From: a virus
Lineage: Duplodnaviria; Heunggongvirae; Uroviricota; Caudoviricetes
Direction: 5' to 3' (one strand)
IMG/VR virus record: IMGVR_UViG_2617270952_000006
Length of the DNA stretch: 43,639 nt
Of the stretch, positions 35,396 to 43,639 are shown in pieces. The notes under the pieces were generated by a model. It worked only from the letters and a program-made list of their open reading frames with translations, was not told the origin of the DNA and did no database searches. Numbering within the stretch: position 1 is the stretch's first letter; each line of letters opens with the position of its first letter. Both the position numbers and the translations under genes were made by a program.

Positions 35396-35506
35396 ATGCC
35401 CTCCATAGTAACCATGAAACAATAATACGATATGTACTTTTAGAATGCAAACAAAAAATACATCTTGTGCATGGATGGTTTTAGTACAGAGCGTAATAAT
35501 AAGGGT
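35396..35506. promoter_or_regulatory. OR region: divergent pR/pRM with operator copy at 35422-35440
   Basis: Minus-strand reading gives -35 TTGCAT, 17-nt spacer, -10 TATTAT before cro; 19-bp motif AAAGTACATATCGTATTAT nearly identical to the pL operator copy. Confidence 0.45.
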
Positions 35507-36166
35507 ATGAAAATGAAATGGTATGAACTGGCTAGATCCAGAATGAAAGAGCTCGGCATAACTCAAGAGAAGTTAGCTGAAGAGCTTGGTATGACGCAGG
35601 GTGGAATTGGTCACTGGTTGCGCGGATCTCGTCATCCATCTCTTGACGAGATTGGTGTGGTGTTTAAATACCTTGGTATTGATAACGTCTCATTCAACCA
35701 CGACGGTACATTTTCACCTGTTGGCGAATACTCATCTGCCCCCGTTAAAAAACAATATGAGTACCCTGTTTTTTCTCATGTTCAGGCCGGGATGTTCTCG
35801 CCTGAGCTTAGAACCTTTACCAAAGGTGATGCGGAGAGATGGGTCAGCACAACCAAAAAAGCCAGTGATTGTGCGTTTTGGCTTGAAGTTGAAGGTAATT
35901 CCATGACCGCGCCAACAGGATCCAAGCCAAGCTTTCCTGACGGGATGTTAATTCTCGTTGACCCTGATCAGGCTGTTGAGCCAGGTGATTTCTGCATAGC
36001 CAGACTTGGTGGTGACGAGTTTACCTTTAAGAAACTGATCAGGGATAGCGGTCAGGTGTTCCTCCAGCCACTAAACCCGCAATATCCAATGATTCCATGC
36101 AATGATAGCTGTTCCGTAGTAGGGAAAGTTATCGCCAGCCAGTGGCCTGAAGAGACATTTAGTTAA
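35507..36166 (+). CDS. cI: CI-type prophage repressor (LexA-like, RecA-stimulated autocleavage)
   Basis: N-terminal HTH (..[22 protein letters not shown]..), C-terminal S24 peptidase motifs (..GNSMTAP.. and ..FKKL..); ORF track extends upstream to 35465. Confidence 0.85.
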
Positions 36167-36390: not shown

Positions 36391-36562
36391 AACCTTCAAA
36401 GCAGAAGGCTTTGGGGTGTGGTGAAGGGTTCATGGATGGGAATATGTCGCACGTAAAGCGGCGAGGCCTGCGGAACTATTGCCGAATTGAAGTCGGCCGA
36501 AGCAGGTCGAAATGGGTCTCCCACCTACCACACCACCAAAGCTAACTGACAGGAGAATCCAG

Positions 36563-36889
36563 ATGGATGCACAAACACGCCGCCGCGAACGTCGCGCAGA
36601 GAAACAGGCTCAATGGAAAGCAGCAAATCCCCTGTTGGTTGGGGTAAGCGCAAAACCAGTTAACCGCCCTATTCTCTCGCTGAATCGCAAACCGAAATCA
36701 CGAGTAGAAAGCGCACTGAATCCGATAGACCTTACAGTGCTGGCTGAATACCACGAACAGATTGAAAGCAACCTGCAACGTATTGAGCGCAAGAATCAGC
36801 GCACATGGTACAGCAAGCCACGCAGTGAAATGGGTGTAACTTGTGTTGGTCGCCAGAAAATGAAATTAGGCAGTAAACCACTTATTTGA
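36563..36889 (+). CDS. N: Antiterminator N (lambda-type)
   Basis: Product MDAQTRRRERRAEKQAQWKAANPLLVGVSAKPVNRPILSLNRKPKSRVESALNPIDLTVLAEYHEQIESNLQRIERKNQRTWYSKP.. recognised as lambda N with arginine-rich motif; AGGAG RBS. Confidence 0.85.
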   Translation: MDAQTRRRERRAEKQAQWKAANPLLVGVSAKPVNRPILSLNRKPKSRVESALNPIDLTVLAEYHEQIESNLQRIERKNQRTWYSKPRSEMGVTCVGRQKMKLGSKPLI

Positions 36890-37393: not shown

Positions 37394-38362
37394 ATGAGTG
37401 AAGTAACAGATTTAGTTGTTATTGAAAAAGCAAATGCAATGACTGTATTTCAGTCTGCCGACCAGATTGAAGAAATCCTTCAAAAGGTTGAACGTGAAGT
37501 TATGTCCTTTGTGCCTGATATCACAACGGCAAAGGGCAGAAAGGAGATCGCTTCTCTGGCGTATAAAGTTGCGCAGACGAAAACATATCTCGATGGTCTT
37601 GGCAAAGACCTTGTTGCTGAACTGAAGGAAATTCCAAAGCTAATTGATGCTAACCGCAAGACAGTGCGTGATCGCCTTGATGAGCTGAAAGCCAAGGCGC
37701 GCCAGCCTCTTACTGATTATGAGGAAGAACAGGCGCGGATTAAAGCCGAAGAAGAAGCTAAGGCAGCAGCTGAAGCTCTCGCAAAGCAAATTGAGTCTGA
37801 CCATGAAATAGCTATTTTGATGGATCGCGAATTTGACCGCCAAAGAGAAGAGGCAAGACTCAAAGCGGAGCAGGAAAAGCGAGAGCATGAAGAACGATTA
37901 AAAAGAGAAGCTGAAGAGAAAGCCAGAGCAGAAGCCGAAGCAAAGGCAAAAGCCGAAATTGAAGCAGCAGCAAGGCGAGAAGCAGAAGCTAAGGCCGCAG
38001 CGGAACGTGCAGAGCGTGAACGCATTGAAGCCGAGCAACGAGCACAGCGCGAAGCAAAAGAGGCAGCAGAACGAGCTGAAAGAGAAAAGCAGGCAGCAAT
38101 TGAAGCAGAACGCAGAAAAGCACAGGAGGAGGCTGAACGAATCCGTCGCGAGGCTGAAGCAAAAGAGCAAGCCAGAATAGCAGAAGAAAAAAGAATCAAG
38201 GACGAAGAAGAGCGTAGAGCAAAGGATAAAGCTCACCGGAAAGAAGTAAATAACAAAATACTTGCTGACCTTATCAAGGTTGGCGCATCAGAAGATGTTG
38301 CTAAAAATATCATAACAGCCATCGTAAAAGGCGAAGTATTCGCAACAAAAATAACCTACTAA
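37394..38362 (+). CDS. Hypothetical 322-aa protein with N-terminal globular region and long E/A/K/R-rich coiled-coil-like low-complexity region
   Basis: Central ~150 aa are almost purely E/A/K/R (..EAEEKARAEAEAKAKAEIEAAARREAEAKAAAERAERE..), resembling TolA domain II-type helices; GGAGGA RBS. Confidence 0.65.
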   Translation: MSEVTDLVVIEKANAMTVFQSADQIEEILQKVEREVMSFVPDITTAKGRKEIASLAYKVAQTKTYLDGLGKDLVAELKEIPKLIDANRKTVRDRLDELKAKARQPLTDYEEEQARIKAEEEAKAAAEALAKQIESDHEIAILMDREFDRQREEARLKAEQEKREHEERLKREAEEKARAEAEAKAKAEIEAAARREAEAKAAAERAERERIEAEQRAQREAKEAAERAEREKQAAIEAERRKAQEEAERIRREAEAKEQARIAEEKRIKDEEERRAKDKAHRKEVNNKILADLIKVGASEDVAKNIITAIVKGEVFATKITY

Positions 38363-38386
38363 TAAAACCAACATAAGGAACCACCC

Positions 38387-38518
38387 ATGATTTACGCAAT
38401 CGCGGGAGGCGCTCGCATGGGTGCCTTCCAACTAAATGAATCTTTACTTGAACGAATCACCCGTAAATTGCGTGACGGATGGAAAAGAGTTGAGGTCTTA
38501 TTATGCGCAATGAAATAG
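38387..38518 (+). CDS. cIII: CIII-like protease inhibitor (43 aa; below ORF-track size cutoff)
   Basis: Translation MIYAIAGGARMGAFQLNESLLERITRKLRDGWKRVEVLLCAMK shares the ESLLERITRKLRDGWKR core with lambda CIII; AAGGAA RBS. Confidence 0.7.
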   Translation: MIYAIAGGARMGAFQLNESLLERITRKLRDGWKRVEVLLCAMK

Positions 38519-38655
38519 CCATCAATCACCAGATGCTTCGTGCAGCACAAAACAAAGCAGTAATAGCCAGATTTATTGGTGATTCAAAAATGTGGCTTGA
38601 AGCAAATAAAGCGATGAAATCAGCTATCAACCTTCCGTGGTATCGCAGGAAATGA
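38503..38655 (+). CDS. kil: Kil-like host cell-division inhibitor (50 aa)
   Basis: Translation MRNEIAINHQMLRAAQNKAVIARFIGDSKMWLEANKAMKSAINLPWYRRK; core ..IA.FIGD.KM..EA.. resembles lambda Kil; overlaps cIII 3' end. Confidence 0.6.
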   Translation: MRNEIAINHQMLRAAQNKAVIARFIGDSKMWLEANKAMKSAINLPWYRRK

Positions 38656-38822
38656 GTTTTACAGATAACTGGTCAGACGAAGAATTCATTCGTCAGATGA
38701 AAGAATTAATCGGTAACGAAGGAGATATTCATGTCACTTGCAACCACAGTGAAGGAGAGCAAGTTACAGAGACGCATGTACACGCAGCAGGCGTTAATGT
38801 ATCGCCAGAAGGGAGATCGTGA
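38652..38822 (+). CDS. Candidate small acidic protein (56 aa), frame A
   Basis: ATG overlaps kil stop (ATGA); MSFTDNWSDEEFIRQMKELIGNEGDIH..; overlaps alternative frame B by ~90 nt, so only one may be real. Confidence 0.3.
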   Translation: MSFTDNWSDEEFIRQMKELIGNEGDIHVTCNHSEGEQVTETHVHAAGVNVSPEGRS

Positions 38823-38901
38823 AGGTGTTCGCGTATTTTTAAATGCGGCAAAGACTGAAGTATTAAATCAGCGTTATTTCCTTGGGCCATGTCCATTCTG
38901 A
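38731..38901 (+). CDS. Candidate small basic protein (56 aa), frame B (Arf-like position before erf)
   Basis: ATG 38731 with GGAG RBS 6 nt upstream; MSLATTVKESKLQRRMYTQQALMYRQKGDREGVRVFLNAAK..; ends 10 nt before erf. Confidence 0.3.
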   Translation: MSLATTVKESKLQRRMYTQQALMYRQKGDREGVRVFLNAAKTEVLNQRYFLGPCPF

Positions 38902-38911
38902 GAACAATCAT

Positions 38912-39517
38912 ATGAGCAAAGAATTTTACGCAAGACTGGCAGCTATTCAGGAGAATCTGAACGCGCCAAAGAATCAGTACAACTCATTCGGCAAATATAA
39001 ATACAGAAGCTGCGAAGACATTCTTGAAAGCGTTAAGCCGTTACTGAATGGCCTGTTTTTATCAATCAGCGATGAAGTTGTGTTGATTGGTGATCGGTAT
39101 TACGTGAAAGCCACGGCAACTATTACCGATGGCGAAAACAGTCATACGGCAACCGCTCTTGCACGAGAGGAAGAAAGCAAGAAAGGAATGGATTCTGCAC
39201 AAGTTACGGGAGCTACAAGCTCTTATGCACGCAAGTATTGCCTCAATGGTTTATTCGGCATTGATGATGCGAAAGATGCAGATACCGACGAGCATAAACA
39301 TCAGCAGAACGCAGCAGCAAAGCAATCAAAACCATCACCTACGCCTGAACAGGTTCTAAAAGCATTCACTGACGCAGCAATGCAGAAAAACACCGTGGAA
39401 GAGCTTAAACAGGCGTTCGCCAAAGCGTGGAAGATGCTCGAAGGCACACCGGAGCAGCACAAAGCGCAGGACGTTTACAACATCAGACGAGACGAATTAG
39501 AAGGGGCAACTGCTTAA
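38912..39517 (+). CDS. erf: Erf single-strand annealing recombinase (P22 Erf-like)
   Basis: Product MSKEFYARLAAIQENLNAPKNQYNSFGKYKYRSCEDILESVKPLLNGLFLSISDEVVLIGDRYYVKATATITDGENSH.. recognised as P22 Erf. Confidence 0.9.
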   Translation: MSKEFYARLAAIQENLNAPKNQYNSFGKYKYRSCEDILESVKPLLNGLFLSISDEVVLIGDRYYVKATATITDGENSHTATALAREEESKKGMDSAQVTGATSSYARKYCLNGLFGIDDAKDADTDEHKHQQNAAAKQSKPSPTPEQVLKAFTDAAMQKNTVEELKQAFAKAWKMLEGTPEQHKAQDVYNIRRDELEGATA

Positions 39518-39900
39518 TGGCACATTCGATTACAGTAAGACTAAACAAGCCCGCAAGAGAGTTTCAGGCCGGGGAAAATATCGGATTCAACATCCGTGCT
39601 GGCGTTCAGTATTACGATCGCCAGACAAAAAAGAAAGAATGGACAAACTACAGCGCCGTTGTATTTGCCAAGCCGGGAGCGCAAGCGGATTACTACCGTA
39701 GTGTTCTTGTTGAAGGTGGCATTGTGGAAATTACCGGAGAAAACATCAGGGTAGATGTTTATCAGGGGCAAAATGGTCAATCAATCACTCTTGAATTACT
39801 GAATGCAAAGATTGGATTTGCAACTTCAGGAAACAGCCAACAGCAGCAAAGTAGCAATCATCAAAATCATCCTGAATACGACGATTCAATCCCCTTCTAG
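39517..39900 (+). CDS. Phage SSB-like protein with acidic C-terminal tip
   Basis: 127-aa product from ATG overlapping erf stop; ends ..PEYDDSIPF, the hallmark SSB C-terminal motif; Q/S-rich linker before it. Confidence 0.65.
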   Translation: MAHSITVRLNKPAREFQAGENIGFNIRAGVQYYDRQTKKKEWTNYSAVVFAKPGAQADYYRSVLVEGGIVEITGENIRVDVYQGQNGQSITLELLNAKIGFATSGNSQQQQSSNHQNHPEYDDSIPF

Positions 39901-39923
39901 ATTAGCAAAATAAGGATTCCATT

Positions 39924-40217
39924 ATGCCAGCGCCTCTGTATGGTGCGGATGACCCGCGCCGCTGTTCCGGCAATTCCGTATCGGAGGTGCTGGATAAATT
40001 CAGAAAAAACTACGATCGGATAATGTCGCTACCGCAGGAAACGAAAGAGGAAAAGGAATTTCGCCACTGCATATGGCTTGCAGAGAAAGAAGAGCGCGAG
40101 CGAATTTACCAGACATCAATCCGACCATTCCGCAAAGCCACATATACCCACTTCCCTGAAATTGACCCGCGCCTGCGTAATTACCGCTCACGTTATGGCG
40201 CTATCAGTAATGACTGA
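39924..40217 (+). CDS. Hypothetical protein (97 aa)
   Basis: ORF with AAGGA RBS 6 nt upstream of ATG. Confidence 0.5.
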
Positions 40218-40395
40218 GGAATTTACCATGAGAGGACTTGCATACAATCCCGGCATTCTTCCGGCAGAAATGATTATTCGCCAACGCGTAAAGCCAATGC
40301 CATCGAGAGAGGAATTGCTTAAGAGAAATTCTTTTCCATCAGTGAATCAAAACAAATATCTGAATGCGATGTGGCGCAAAGGAGGCAACCAGTGA
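40210..40395 (+). CDS. Hypothetical protein (61 aa)
   Basis: ATG overlaps upstream stop (ATGA); ORF track lists a longer in-frame version from 40078. Confidence 0.4.
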
Positions 40396-41054
40396 GCAAG
40401 ATTAACTATCAGGCACTACGTGATGCGGCAGAAAAGGCAACACAGGGTGAATGGGTCGCATTTATTTCGCCGGGCAAATACGGCACGTACGCCGTACACA
40501 CACCAGGTGATAATCATCACGGAGATATTGTCGACTGGCCAGGATTCGACGAACAGAAAAACGCAGAGAACAACGCTCGTTATATCGCAGCTTTCAACCC
40601 TGAAGTAGTGCAGGCGCTGCTGGATGAACGGGAAAGAAACCAGCAATACATCAAATCACGCGACAAGGAGAACGAGGAAATTGCGCTAACGGTAGGGAAG
40701 CTGCGTGTTGAGCTGGAAGCCGCAGAGAAGCGCAACGCAAAATTACAAAGCGAGAATGCATACATCCGCAACCGGTTCAAAGAACTGGACCTGTTAATCG
40801 GGAAAAACATTCTGGTCATGCAGGCTGCCATTATCGAATGGCAGGCAACTGGCGACGCTAAGAGCGGACTGGCATGGATTTATAACACACTGTTTGGCCC
40901 TGGCGAATTACCGGACGAATCTGAGAAAGATGCTCAGGCCTACTTTAATCGCAAATATGCACCGATTGACGAAAAGCTTATGGAGCTTCACAAGTGGTTT
41001 TGGGAACAAAGTGAAGCCGAGCGCGCTGCTGGTATTCGCATCAAAGGAGAGTGA
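40392..41054 (+). CDS. Ead/Ea22-like family protein
   Basis: Start assigned to GTG 40392 (6 nt after GGAGG RBS; ORF track starts 40371); coiled-coil-containing product of a type common in lambdoid early-left regions. Confidence 0.55.
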
Positions 41055-41055
41055 T

Positions 41056-41622
41056 ATGAGCGCTATAACCAAAGAACGTATCGAATTATTCATTAAAAAT
41101 CCGCTTGATAACGGACTTACCCGTGGCGAACAAATGGAACTGGCACGAATTGCACTGGCATCACTGGCAGCAGTATCGGATGAACGAGCAGCCTATGAAT
41201 TATTTATGGAGAAGCGTTTCGGGGAATCTGTAGATCGCCGCAGGGCGAAAAATGGCGATAGAGAATACATGGCATGGGATATGGCGCTTGGCTGGATTAT
41301 CTGGTGTCACCGCGCCGCCATGCTTCAGACTGGAAACTTTCGGGAAAATAAGGATTCGTCAACCAATAATTTTCGGGAAACCTCGGAAACGTCAACCAAC
41401 TCTCCGGTAACTCCGGATAGTTGGATAAGCTGTAGTGAGCGGATGCCAGAGGACGGTCAGCACGTAATTATTTTATGTGATGGCGCATTCGTTCTTTATG
41501 CGCAATATCGAGACGGTGAGTTTTTTGATGTCGTCCGCAATGGTGAGGAGTTCTTCGAAACGCAGAGCCGCAATGTAACCGACTGGATGCCTCTACCAGA
41601 ACCGCCGCAGGAGGTGAAGTGA
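41056..41622 (+). CDS. DUF551-domain phage protein
   Basis: C-terminal region ..WISCSERMPEDGQHVIILCDGAFVLYAQYRDGEFFDVVRNGEEFFETQSRNVTDWMPLPEPP.. fits DUF551; AAGGAGA RBS; contains short internal tandem repeat. Confidence 0.6.
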   Translation: MSAITKERIELFIKNPLDNGLTRGEQMELARIALASLAAVSDERAAYELFMEKRFGESVDRRRAKNGDREYMAWDMALGWIIWCHRAAMLQTGNFRENKDSSTNNFRETSETSTNSPVTPDSWISCSERMPEDGQHVIILCDGAFVLYAQYRDGEFFDVVRNGEEFFETQSRNVTDWMPLPEPPQEVK

Positions 41623-41900
41623 TGGACTCCTTCGCGAAATATACGATCATTGACTGGATAGCATTCCTTCAGGTTTTGCTCATCTGGTTTTATATGGCTT
41701 ACAGGAGTGGGCAGTGGATTGTCAACATGGCCTGTAGCAGGGGATGGCGTTGGTGGAACCGAAAGAATAAAAAAGCACTGGCATTGGATTCGTTTTACGA
41801 AGCATTCAATCTTAACAGCCTTCAGCCTGGTTCTGTCATTGTAGTCACCACTCAAAGCGGCATGACCATTCAGATTCATAAACCAAAAGAGGAAAAATGA
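41622..41900 (+). CDS. Hypothetical small membrane protein (92 aa)
   Basis: ATG overlaps DUF551 stop; one hydrophobic helix (..IIDWIAFLQVLLIWFYMAY..). Confidence 0.45.
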   Translation: MDSFAKYTIIDWIAFLQVLLIWFYMAYRSGQWIVNMACSRGWRWWNRKNKKALALDSFYEAFNLNSLQPGSVIVVTTQSGMTIQIHKPKEEK

Positions 41901-41986
41901 TGTGGCCTATATGTGTTAATTGCGGACGGATGTGCCTATCTGGATGGTGCCGAAAGTGCGACAAATGCACGAAGCAAAGACAATAA
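41897..41986 (+). CDS. Candidate 29-aa Cys-rich mini-ORF (zinc-ribbon-like)
   Basis: MMWPICVNCGRMCLSGWCRKCDKCTKQRQ; ATG overlaps upstream stop; followed by hairpin/T-tract. Confidence 0.3.
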   Translation: MMWPICVNCGRMCLSGWCRKCDKCTKQRQ

Positions 41987-42028
41987 CAATCCTCGCACTC
42001 GCGGGGATTTCTTTTATATGGGGATAAT

Positions 42029-42829
42029 ATGACCATCCACTTTCACGGCAGCCCAATATGGGGTGATGAGCATGCCCCTACAGATATGCTGATTAAAGCC
42101 CTTTACCGTGATGGTGGGGCTTTTGTTTCATTTGCCAGACCAGAGCAGATGAAAAAGATTGCCATGTTCCCTTGTGATATACGCCTTGATAACGGTGCTT
42201 TTAGCGACTGGATGAAAGCATTAAAGAAAGGCACTCCGGTAGACTGGAGTAAGAGACGAGCAAAATTCTACGACTTTGTTGGGACGTGGTTCAGCAGAAT
42301 TGAATGGTTTCTTATACCTGACGTTATCGAAGGGACAGAGGCAGAAAACGACGAGCAGATTGAGTTGGTTCCTGATTGGCTAAAATCAAAAGCGGTTCCG
42401 GTCTGGCATACCGACGAATCAATTGAACGTCTTTTACGCCTTTCTGGCAAATTTGAATGGGTGGCGATTGGATGCTGCGGCCCACACAGGCACATACGCT
42501 CTAAATGGTGGGAACAGAGAATGGATGAAGTTTTTACTGAGATTTATATCAATCGTAATTTGAAAGTGAAAATTCATGGTCTTCGAATGCTCGACGTGAG
42601 AGTTCTTGGTATGTATCCGTTCGCCAGTGCGGATTCTACTAATGTTGCTGTTAACGTACCGAAGACAGAGAAGCGATTTCCTGAGATTACCGACAAACTG
42701 GCACGTACAGCTGTACTTCGCGCAGCTATTGAAAAGGTGCACCCACCATCGATATCAGCATGGGTAGACAGAAAGAGGAGAGAGCCGGCGCAAGCCGGTT
42801 TTTTATTTGAATTCACCGACGCCGCTTAA
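42029..42829 (+). CDS. Hypothetical 266-aa protein (moron-like cassette)
   Basis: Stand-alone ORF bounded on both sides by hairpin/T-tract elements; no motif confidently recognised. Confidence 0.6.
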   Translation: MTIHFHGSPIWGDEHAPTDMLIKALYRDGGAFVSFARPEQMKKIAMFPCDIRLDNGAFSDWMKALKKGTPVDWSKRRAKFYDFVGTWFSRIEWFLIPDVIEGTEAENDEQIELVPDWLKSKAVPVWHTDESIERLLRLSGKFEWVAIGCCGPHRHIRSKWWEQRMDEVFTEIYINRNLKVKIHGLRMLDVRVLGMYPFASADSTNVAVNVPKTEKRFPEITDKLARTAVLRAAIEKVHPPSISAWVDRKRREPAQAGFLFEFTDAA

Positions 42830-42886
42830 TGCGGATTTCTTTTATCTGAACTCGCTACGGCGGGTTTTGTTTTATGGAGATGATAA

Positions 42887-43054
42887 ATGCACTTCCGAGT
42901 CACAGGTGAATGGAATGGAGAGCCATTCAACAGGGTTATCGAAGCAGAGGACATCAACGACTGCTATAACCACTGGATGATATGGGCGCAGATAGCGCAT
43001 GCAGACGTAACCAATATTCGAATTGAAGAACTGAAAGAACACCAAGACGCCTGA
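42887..43054 (+). CDS. Candidate 55-aa protein (below ORF-track cutoff)
   Basis: ATG 42887 preceded by GGAG; MHFRVTGEWNGEPFNRVIEAEDINDCYNHWMIWAQIAHADVTNIRIEELKEHQDA. Confidence 0.35.
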   Translation: MHFRVTGEWNGEPFNRVIEAEDINDCYNHWMIWAQIAHADVTNIRIEELKEHQDA

Positions 43055-43078
43055 TGGCGGTTTTTTTGGGGGTAGTAG

Positions 43079-43294
43079 ATGGCTGCAATTCACATTGTAT
43101 CAATAACATGCAATGCAATTCAGATAGTTGCTTGCATTATCTTTGTTTTCTCAATCCTTCGCTCCCGACGATATTCTCCAGCAATTAACCGACATCCTGC
43201 ACAAGTTGAAGCCGTCAGGATGGCTATAGAGCTACGAAATGAGATGAATAAGGCATTAATGGAGATGGAGAAACCATTCACTGACAAACATTAA
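43079..43294 (+). CDS. Hypothetical small membrane protein (71 aa)
   Basis: N-terminal hydrophobic helix (..IVSITCNAIQIVACIIFVFSIL..). Confidence 0.4.
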   Translation: MAAIHIVSITCNAIQIVACIIFVFSILRSRRYSPAINRHPAQVEAVRMAIELRNEMNKALMEMEKPFTDKH

Positions 43295-43372
43295 GAGTGG
43301 AAATAAAGAAATCACACCGCCTCACACTCGATGAGGCATTTTCATTTATCAAGATATCCAGACCTACCATCG

Positions 43373-43394
43373 CCGCATCAATGCGGTTTTTTTA
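43373..43394 (+). terminator. Rho-independent terminator upstream of excisionase gene
   Basis: Hairpin ccgcat-ca-atgcgg followed by 7-nt T-run. Confidence 0.5.
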
Positions 43395-43438
43395 TTGCCT
43401 GATTTGCAGGTTTGATTCCCTATTTGGAGATAGCACTC

Positions 43439-43639
43439 ATGCAACACGAACTACAGCCTGATTCACTGGTTGATTTGAAATTCATCATGGCCGATACTGG
43501 CTTCGGTAAAACCTTCATCTATGACCGGATTAAGTCCGGCGACCTGCCTAAAGCCAAAGTTATCCACGGACGAGCAAGATGGTTATATCGTGACCATTGT
43601 GAATTCAAAAATAAGCTCTTAAGCCGCGCCAATGGGTAA
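43439..43639 (+). CDS. torI: Excisionase / recombination directionality factor, AlpA-TorI family
   Basis: 66-aa product MQHELQPDSLVDLKFIMADTGFGKTFIYDRIKSGDLPKAKVIHGRARWLYRDHCEFKNKLLSRANG recognised as TorI-like (KplE1 excisionase); stop at window end. Confidence 0.8.
   Translation: MQHELQPDSLVDLKFIMADTGFGKTFIYDRIKSGDLPKAKVIHGRARWLYRDHCEFKNKLLSRANG

Follow-up and report, generated by a model that had tools for sequence, protein, structure and literature searches.

The window analyzed here (the whole 43,639-nt stretch of DNA from a virus of the Caudoviricetes) carries, by PHROG matches, a cI-like repressor (positions 35465-36163), an N-like antiterminator (36512-36886), and an Erf-like annealing protein (38882-39514), with CII-like, O-like, and DnaB-like genes matched on the opposite strand. 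The cI-like, N-like, CII-like, and Erf-like genes identify the + strand from ~36.3 kb as the pL (early-left) operon, and the elements described below sit at the far end of this lambdoid operon, just 5′ of torI. Ahead of torI, the + strand encodes a 28-aa ORF (41901-41987), whose TAA stop codon (41985-41987) directly adjoins the first hairpin element; the DpdA-like ORF266 (42029-42829); ORF55 (42887-43054), a homologue of lambda orf55 (PHROG 676); and ORF71 (71 aa; 43079-43294; PHROG 15342, of unknown function). These are followed on the same strand by a relic of a P22-type xis gene (~codons 2 to 22; 60 nt; 43309-43368), a pI-like promoter (43394-43432) with a cII-box-like sequence at 43395-43407, which was assigned from homology to the annotated HK620 and Sf6 sequences, and torI itself (43439-43639), an excisionase or recombination directionality factor. 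The product of lambda orf55 has been proposed, by modelling, to be a T7 Gp2-like RNA polymerase modulator (PMC8614690); in Sf6 and HK620 just the last ~60 nt of orf55 remain, 5′ of the element called E5 below.

Hairpin and T-run elements at the end of the pL operon

Six elements composed of a hairpin and a T-run lie on the + strand between 41988 and 43396 (E1, E2, E3, E4, E5, and E7). E1 (41988-42017) has a 9-pair stem, AATCCTCGC-ACTC-GCGGGGATT, followed by the tail TCTTTTAT, and folds at -13.1 kcal/mol (z -5.5 against shuffles). The 11 pairs of E2 (42779-42808), followed by T6, make it the strongest of the elements (-16.6 kcal/mol, z -4.1). E4 (42848-42875) consists of the 8-pair hairpin GAACTCGC-TACG-GCGGGTTT with TGTTTTAT, leading into the ribosome-binding site GGAG (-11.0 kcal/mol, z -2.8). 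The remaining three hairpins are weak. E3 (42820-42845), a 4-bp hairpin (CGCCGC-TTAAT-GCGG) joined to the right-hand copy of GGATTTCTTTTAT, is the weakest and folds no better than shuffles (-6.8 kcal/mol, z -1.3), and E7 (43371-43396; CCGCAT-CAAT-GCGG followed by T7ATT) forms 6 pairs at -8.3 kcal/mol (z -2.1). E5 (43048-43067; CGCC-TGAT-GGCG followed by T7) has 4 G-C pairs and a mismatch in the window; its energy is -11.3 kcal/mol (z -2.0), and in longer context shuffles fold equally well (z -0.6). This is a property of the window copy, which reads GACGCC (within 43043-43060) where lambda and most relatives have GCCGCC and so loses one stem pair relative to the 8-pair lambda-type E5; the same C-to-A stem variant was found in 9 of 92 sampled contexts. 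All six hairpins still form when folded with longer flanks.

Every stem is followed by at least 5 T within 8 nt on its 3′ side, always on the strand of pL transcription, and the region from 38000 to 43639 contains 12 terminator-like sites against 5.7 ± 2.0 in shuffles. G+C-rich stems of about 5 or more pairs with a loop of 3 to 8 nt were found in E1, E2, E4, E7, and the lambda-type E5; E3, with its 4 pairs, and the mismatched E5 of the window are exceptions to this stem rule for intrinsic terminators. Judged by their sequence, the elements qualify as candidate Rho-independent (intrinsic) terminators. One further terminator-like hit, E6 (43319-43337), was set aside as coding-sequence debris because it lies inside the xis relic. 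No Rfam family matched 40500-43639 at an E value of ≤1, and the searchable literature yielded no experimental 3′-end or termination data for this phage, for lambda t3 to t5, or for HK022 tL4; a literature search on KplE1/torI termination likewise returned nothing mentioning torI.

The initial annotation had listed five of these elements, all of which were recovered within 1 to 2 nt of where it had placed them, and had overlooked the good hairpin E4. Its ranking is turned around by the folding energies: the element at ~42785 that it called weaker (E2) is the strongest, and the one at ~42821 that it called clear (E3) is the weakest. The sequence relatedness that it described among the elements is real. 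The 13-nt GGATTTCTTTTAT has exactly two copies in the 43.6-kb window (42005-42017 and 42833-42845), against an expected count of 0.09 and with two matches in 0 of 100 shuffles, and a repeat search joined 42786-42805, 42823-42842, 43048-43067, and 43374-43393, which belong to E2, E3, E5, and E7, into one family. Most of this relatedness can be put down to chimeras and duplications at the joints, with E3 combining an E7-like stem and the tail of E1, and E7 having an E5-like 3′ half.

Three elements correspond to predicted lambda terminators

Between ea8.5 and xis, lambda carries, in this order, TAA-CAATCCTCGCACTCGCGGGGATTTATTTTAT (E1), CTGAACTCGCTACGGCGGGTTTTGTTTTATGGAG (E4), orf55, GCCGCCTGATGGCGGTTTTTT (E5), the cII box TTGCGTGTAATTGC, and xis. 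E1, E4, and E5 of the window match these intergenic hairpins with 1 to 2 bases differing, so that their likeness to lambda t3 to t5 and HK022 tL4 is one of the same sequences in the same order at the same position. Bloch et al. (2014, PMC4195576, Table 4) list the lambda counterparts as t3, t4, and t5, respectively, which are terminators predicted by ARNold; two predictors call them terminators in that study, and record X51962 (HK022 int-xis) labels the E1 homologue "tL4 terminator". In lambda, Sf6, and HK620, E5 stands directly 5′ of the pI/cII box. By sequence, E1, E4, and E5 are parts of a conserved lambda backbone, ea8.5-E1-E4-orf55-E5-pI-xis, that has already been described at the level of predictions. 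The window differs from lambda in having two added blocks, at E1 and at E5, in the additional hairpins E2, E3, and E7, and in the torI-type rather than lambda-type xis downstream.

The backbone elements are highly conserved. The 68-nt E1-E4 block shows 97% column identity over 37 variants, and the TAA 5′ of CAATCC, before E1, is present in nearly all variants seen, with a few TGA. Reading this TAA as a stop codon in every case was rejected, the annotated upstream gene of lambda and Sf6 ending 16 to 27 nt earlier. Across the 37 variants, 97.5% of cells are paired; the stem changes are all one-sided (U-G/U-A), double changes number 0, and there is no excess relative to shuffles. Because double changes are missing from the stems, the conservation could stem from a recent common ancestor instead of from selection for the structure.

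Two blocks added relative to lambda

The first block is an 828-nt insertion (42018-42845, + strand) relative to lambda, HK022, and Sf6, comprising ORF266, E2, and E3 and bounded by the exact 13-nt repeat GGATTTCTTTTAT. In lambda, HK022, Sf6, and most other loci, 42017 is joined straight to 42846, so that the E1 tail abuts E4 (CTGAACTCGC). ORF266 matches PHROG 887 ("queuine tRNA-ribosyltransferase", E value of 5e-102), and tblastn aligns it at 58% identity with the DpdA region of Salmonella phage 7-11; searches of Pfam, NCBIfam, and PDB sequences returned no match, and the name is taken solely from PHROG 887 and from annotations in databases. The examined ~32 to 43.6 kb of the window showed no preQ0-synthesis genes, and in this respect ORF266 is like the "DpdA-only" group of phages described by Hutinet et al. 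(2019, PMC6884629). Its G+C content is not deviant (0.461 versus 0.467 for the window). HK106 has the same ORF266 cassette, 98.3% identical to the window over 41800-43066 and ending at the E5 T-run.

Distant homologues of ORF266 are conserved only up to ~aa 248, and the frame then crosses E2 (aa 251 to 260) to a TAA stop in the E3 loop, so the last ~18 residues look like terminator DNA into which the reading frame has run on. E2 is probably the terminator of the cassette itself. By its sequence E3 is a chimera, its stem resembling E7 (ACC..CGCCGC.T.AATGCGG) and its tail being that of E1. Four different left partners were found attached to the same ATTTCTTTTAT tail; among those of the E1-type tail elsewhere are a different hairpin in one related locus (L033) and no hairpin in another (L031). 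A breakpoint at window position 42737 in a further relative (L039) was discarded as a recombination joint and results from an IS3-family insertion into the ORF266 homologue. That element (L039 1630-2790) has its orfA/orfB on the opposite strand, occupies the place of the 5′ part of the homologue, and leaves just its last ~90 nt.

The second block (43068-43370, + strand) is an insertion relative to lambda, Sf6, and HK620 and comprises ORF71 and the xis relic. The N-terminal half of ORF71 is hydrophobic (AAIHIVSITCNAIQIVACIIFVFSIL), and its G+C content is 0.398 against 0.467 for the window; the product may, from its sequence, be a small membrane protein. In two relatives (L107 and L148), the relic sequence runs on as an intact ORF, which encodes a protein with 93% identity to P22 Xis. 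The same relic and a decayed E7 precede torI in the KplE1 prophage of Escherichia coli K-12 (yfdT-torI spacer), and the dead 5′ end of a P22-type xis gene upstream of torI was noted at window 43309-43368 and at L205 1510-1600. This arrangement implies that the integration module was replaced long ago. The second block is flanked by E5 and the E5-like E7, whose 3′ arm and T-run match E5 and continue into the cII-box-like TTGCCTGATTTGC, a region annotated as pI in HK620 and Sf6. Both blocks are thus flanked by a duplicated piece of terminator, GGATTTCTTTTAT in one case and GCGG plus the T-run in the other. "Insertion" is meant relative to lambda: by sequence, each difference could have arisen by insertion or by deletion between the repeats.

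Homology breaks cluster at the elements

The window was compared by local BLAST with loci sampled from viral sequences (80 contigs retrieved via ORF55 and ~120 via a 19-mer in E1, plus Sf6, HK620, HK022, and lambda), and the ends of homology (HSP ends) were tallied. The ends cluster at 41982-4, directly 5′ of E1; at 42017-20, where the E1 tail ends; at 42833/42840, in the E3 tail and at the E4 start; at 42862-89, from the 3′ arm of E4 through the ribosome-binding site and ATG; at 43066-9, where the E5 T-run ends; at 43302-18, at the start of the xis relic; and at 43372-92, at E7. Out of 69 distinct junction classes, 46 fall within ±10 nt of E1, E2, E3/E4, E5, or E7, which together span 12.4% of the region (binomial, 1e-25), with the qualification that break-end counts near ORF55 and E1 are inflated by the anchoring of the sample on ORF55 or the E1 19-mer. 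An unanchored megablast search of 5426 complete E. coli genomes returned pieces that end at the same coordinates; 3050 of these genomes have some piece, and only 6 have ≥80% of 41900-43639.

What changes at these positions is the gene content, as the initial annotation had anticipated for related phages. At least 9 unrelated sequences, the 28-aa ORF being one, occur 5′ of E1 among relatives, and at least 6 different genes occur 3′ of E4-GGAG. The T-run of E5 has at least 5 partners on its 3′ side: torI-type and lambda-type pI/xis, an HK022-type ORF, ORF71, and another ORF. The HK022-type ORF lies 3′ of E4 in some phages and 3′ of E5 in others. TAA-E1-E4-GGAG (~68 nt) and the orf55 3′ end with E5 are near-invariant while the flanking genes vary among phages, and ORF266 and ORF71 each come and go as a unit with hairpin elements at its borders. 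The annotation's picture of a stack of cassettes separated by terminator-like units is in part supported, by the ORF266 and ORF71 blocks; E1, E4, and E5 belong to the lambda backbone and are not carried by cassettes.

Joints are found as well at gene boundaries that lack a hairpin, such as 41894 and 41022-41058, so exchange does not require hairpins. Conserved patches of 30 to 55 nt amid unrelated sequence were observed in many relatives at 41022-41058, 41137-41173, 41397-41450, and 41582-41618; these lie where genes overlap or close by, and within a DUF551 domain gene, and are counterparts, without hairpins, of the joints described here.

Discussion

The reading that we favor, at a probability of roughly 0.7, is that the elements are the intergenic terminator-type punctuation of the exo-xis operon and that their conserved blocks serve gene exchange. 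On their sequence, they would be Rho-independent terminator-type hairpins placed between one stop codon and the next ribosome-binding site. Read-through of terminators by N-modified polymerase is established lambda biology. By homology to lambda, the hairpins would stop or attenuate leftward transcription ahead of torI/int when no N-like antiterminator acts, and N-modified polymerase would pass them, so that inserted genes lacking promoters would be made as early lytic genes. Given such read-through, ORF266 and ORF71 would be early lytic genes and not morons expressed in the lysogen.

Since the conserved blocks are non-coding and common to many phages, they may provide short homologies at which neighboring genes are swapped in register, with a recombinase that could be supplied either by the host or by the phage itself, as its Erf-like annealing protein. 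The minimal pairing segment of Red-beta is quoted as 23 to 27 bp, a length that the 68-nt E1-E4 block exceeds, and Erf-type recombinases accept diverged substrates (De Paepe et al. 2014, PMC3945230). Relaxed homologous recombination of this Rad52-like kind offers a mechanism for exchange where homology is brief or imperfect, and an Erf-like protein of the same family is encoded in the window. The 13-nt and GCGG-plus-T-run joints differ in being shorter than the minimal pairing length, which implies microhomology events; these would fall in the hairpin 3′ arm or T-run and would yield the chimeric E3 and E7.

Joints at overlapping gene boundaries without hairpins (41894 and 41022-41058), at the ribosome-binding site and start codon (42872-42889), and inside orf55 (43003/43007 in Sf6 and HK620) are what would be expected if the hairpins were passive and random illegitimate recombination, as in the Hendrix model, were followed by selection that keeps the joints that spare genes, in which case joints would turn up in any intergenic sequence available. 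We nevertheless consider this explanation unlikely, since the same near-invariant intergenic block stands beside many unrelated neighbors, duplicated terminator pieces (GGATTTCTTTTAT and the E5/E7 pair) flank both insertions, and E3 joins the stem of one element to the tail of another. The duplicated pieces, the chimeric E3, and the invariant blocks indicate crossovers within shared sequence. The opposite extreme, in which the terminator hairpins of the exo-xis operon are true recombination hotspots and folded DNA, T-rich DNA, or transcription that stalls or terminates directs crossovers into the 3′ arm and T-run, strikes us as improbable. Were it correct, crossovers mediated by annealing proteins or microhomology would be actively targeted to terminators, and terminators would form a generic "cassette linker" by which genes without promoters, the DpdA-like ORF among them, move between phages of the lambda and P22 types.

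Two other roles for the hairpins bear on what the elements are. They might mainly be intercistronic stabilizers of mRNA or processing barriers that set gene dosage in the pL operon rather than terminators, and their location at cistron 3′ ends in an antiterminated operon, where termination is overridden during lytic growth, agrees with this, as does the weakness of several of them as terminators. The T-run directly after each hairpin, however, is the hallmark of an intrinsic terminator and would be unneeded for 3′ protection, and two predictors score the lambda orthologues as terminators; we therefore give a mainly stabilizing role little weight, noting that stabilizer and terminator functions are not mutually exclusive. 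The combinatorial array of ORF-plus-hairpin units also recalls integron cassettes, in which the elements would be recognition sites for a dedicated structure-specific recombination system, as attC sites are. This is very hard to reconcile with hairpins of 15 to 26 nt (against ~57 to 141 nt for attC), with joints that scatter over stem, tail, and ribosome-binding site instead of sharing a single cleavage point, and with the recombination genes seen, which are the Erf-like protein and the torI/int module, with no IntI-type integrase among them, and we give it next to no credence. Prophage anti-sRNAs (Tree et al. 2014) were also considered and dismissed, being located downstream of PR′ and not at these elements.

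The initial annotation regarded the genes between the elements as morons. As Juhala and Hendrix define it, a moron is an additional gene, equipped with a promoter and a terminator of its own, that separates two genes found side by side in related phages (PMC3594210, PMC3029335). ORF266 and ORF71 resemble morons as additional genes that separate sequences lying next to each other in lambda, Sf6, and HK620, and ORF266 also has a strong terminator-like hairpin of its own, E2, which follows the conserved part of the gene; the sole hairpin available to ORF71 is E7, beyond the xis relic. They differ in lacking promoters of their own, and ORF266, unlike the lower-G+C ORF71, also differs in its unremarkable G+C content. 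The distance from T-run to ATG is 11 nt for both genes, which leaves no space for a promoter, and a scan for sigma-70-like promoters found no site in 41.9 to 43.4 kb, so the term fails in its strict sense and both genes would depend on read-through from pL.

The joints also fit the "boundary sequences" or linkers that reportedly lie at the module junctions of lambdoid phages, as Susskind and Botstein are said to have proposed in 1978 and Clark et al. to have described for HK620 in 2001. The Sf6 record AF547987 annotates two such features, bsq2 and bsq3. The elements of the window share with boundary sequences that they are short conserved stretches that join unrelated modules and have been proposed as substrates of homologous exchange, and the same short conserved joints were indeed found between non-homologous modules in different phages. 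They differ in that Sf6 bsq2 spans the pI-torI segment and not hairpins, whereas the conserved joints here are whole intergenic terminator blocks.

That mosaic joints fall in conserved sequence between genes is textbook knowledge for lambdoid phages. With three of the elements already tabulated as predicted terminators of lambda, the finding is known in kind and opens no new question. It does explain the related hairpins noticed at the outset as the predicted intergenic terminators of lambda, partly duplicated and recombined where extra genes entered, and it provides a clean, well-sampled case of mosaic joints located in shared non-coding punctuation. The stand-alone DpdA-like DNA-modification gene is further shown to travel as a promoter-less unit, which would depend on pL.
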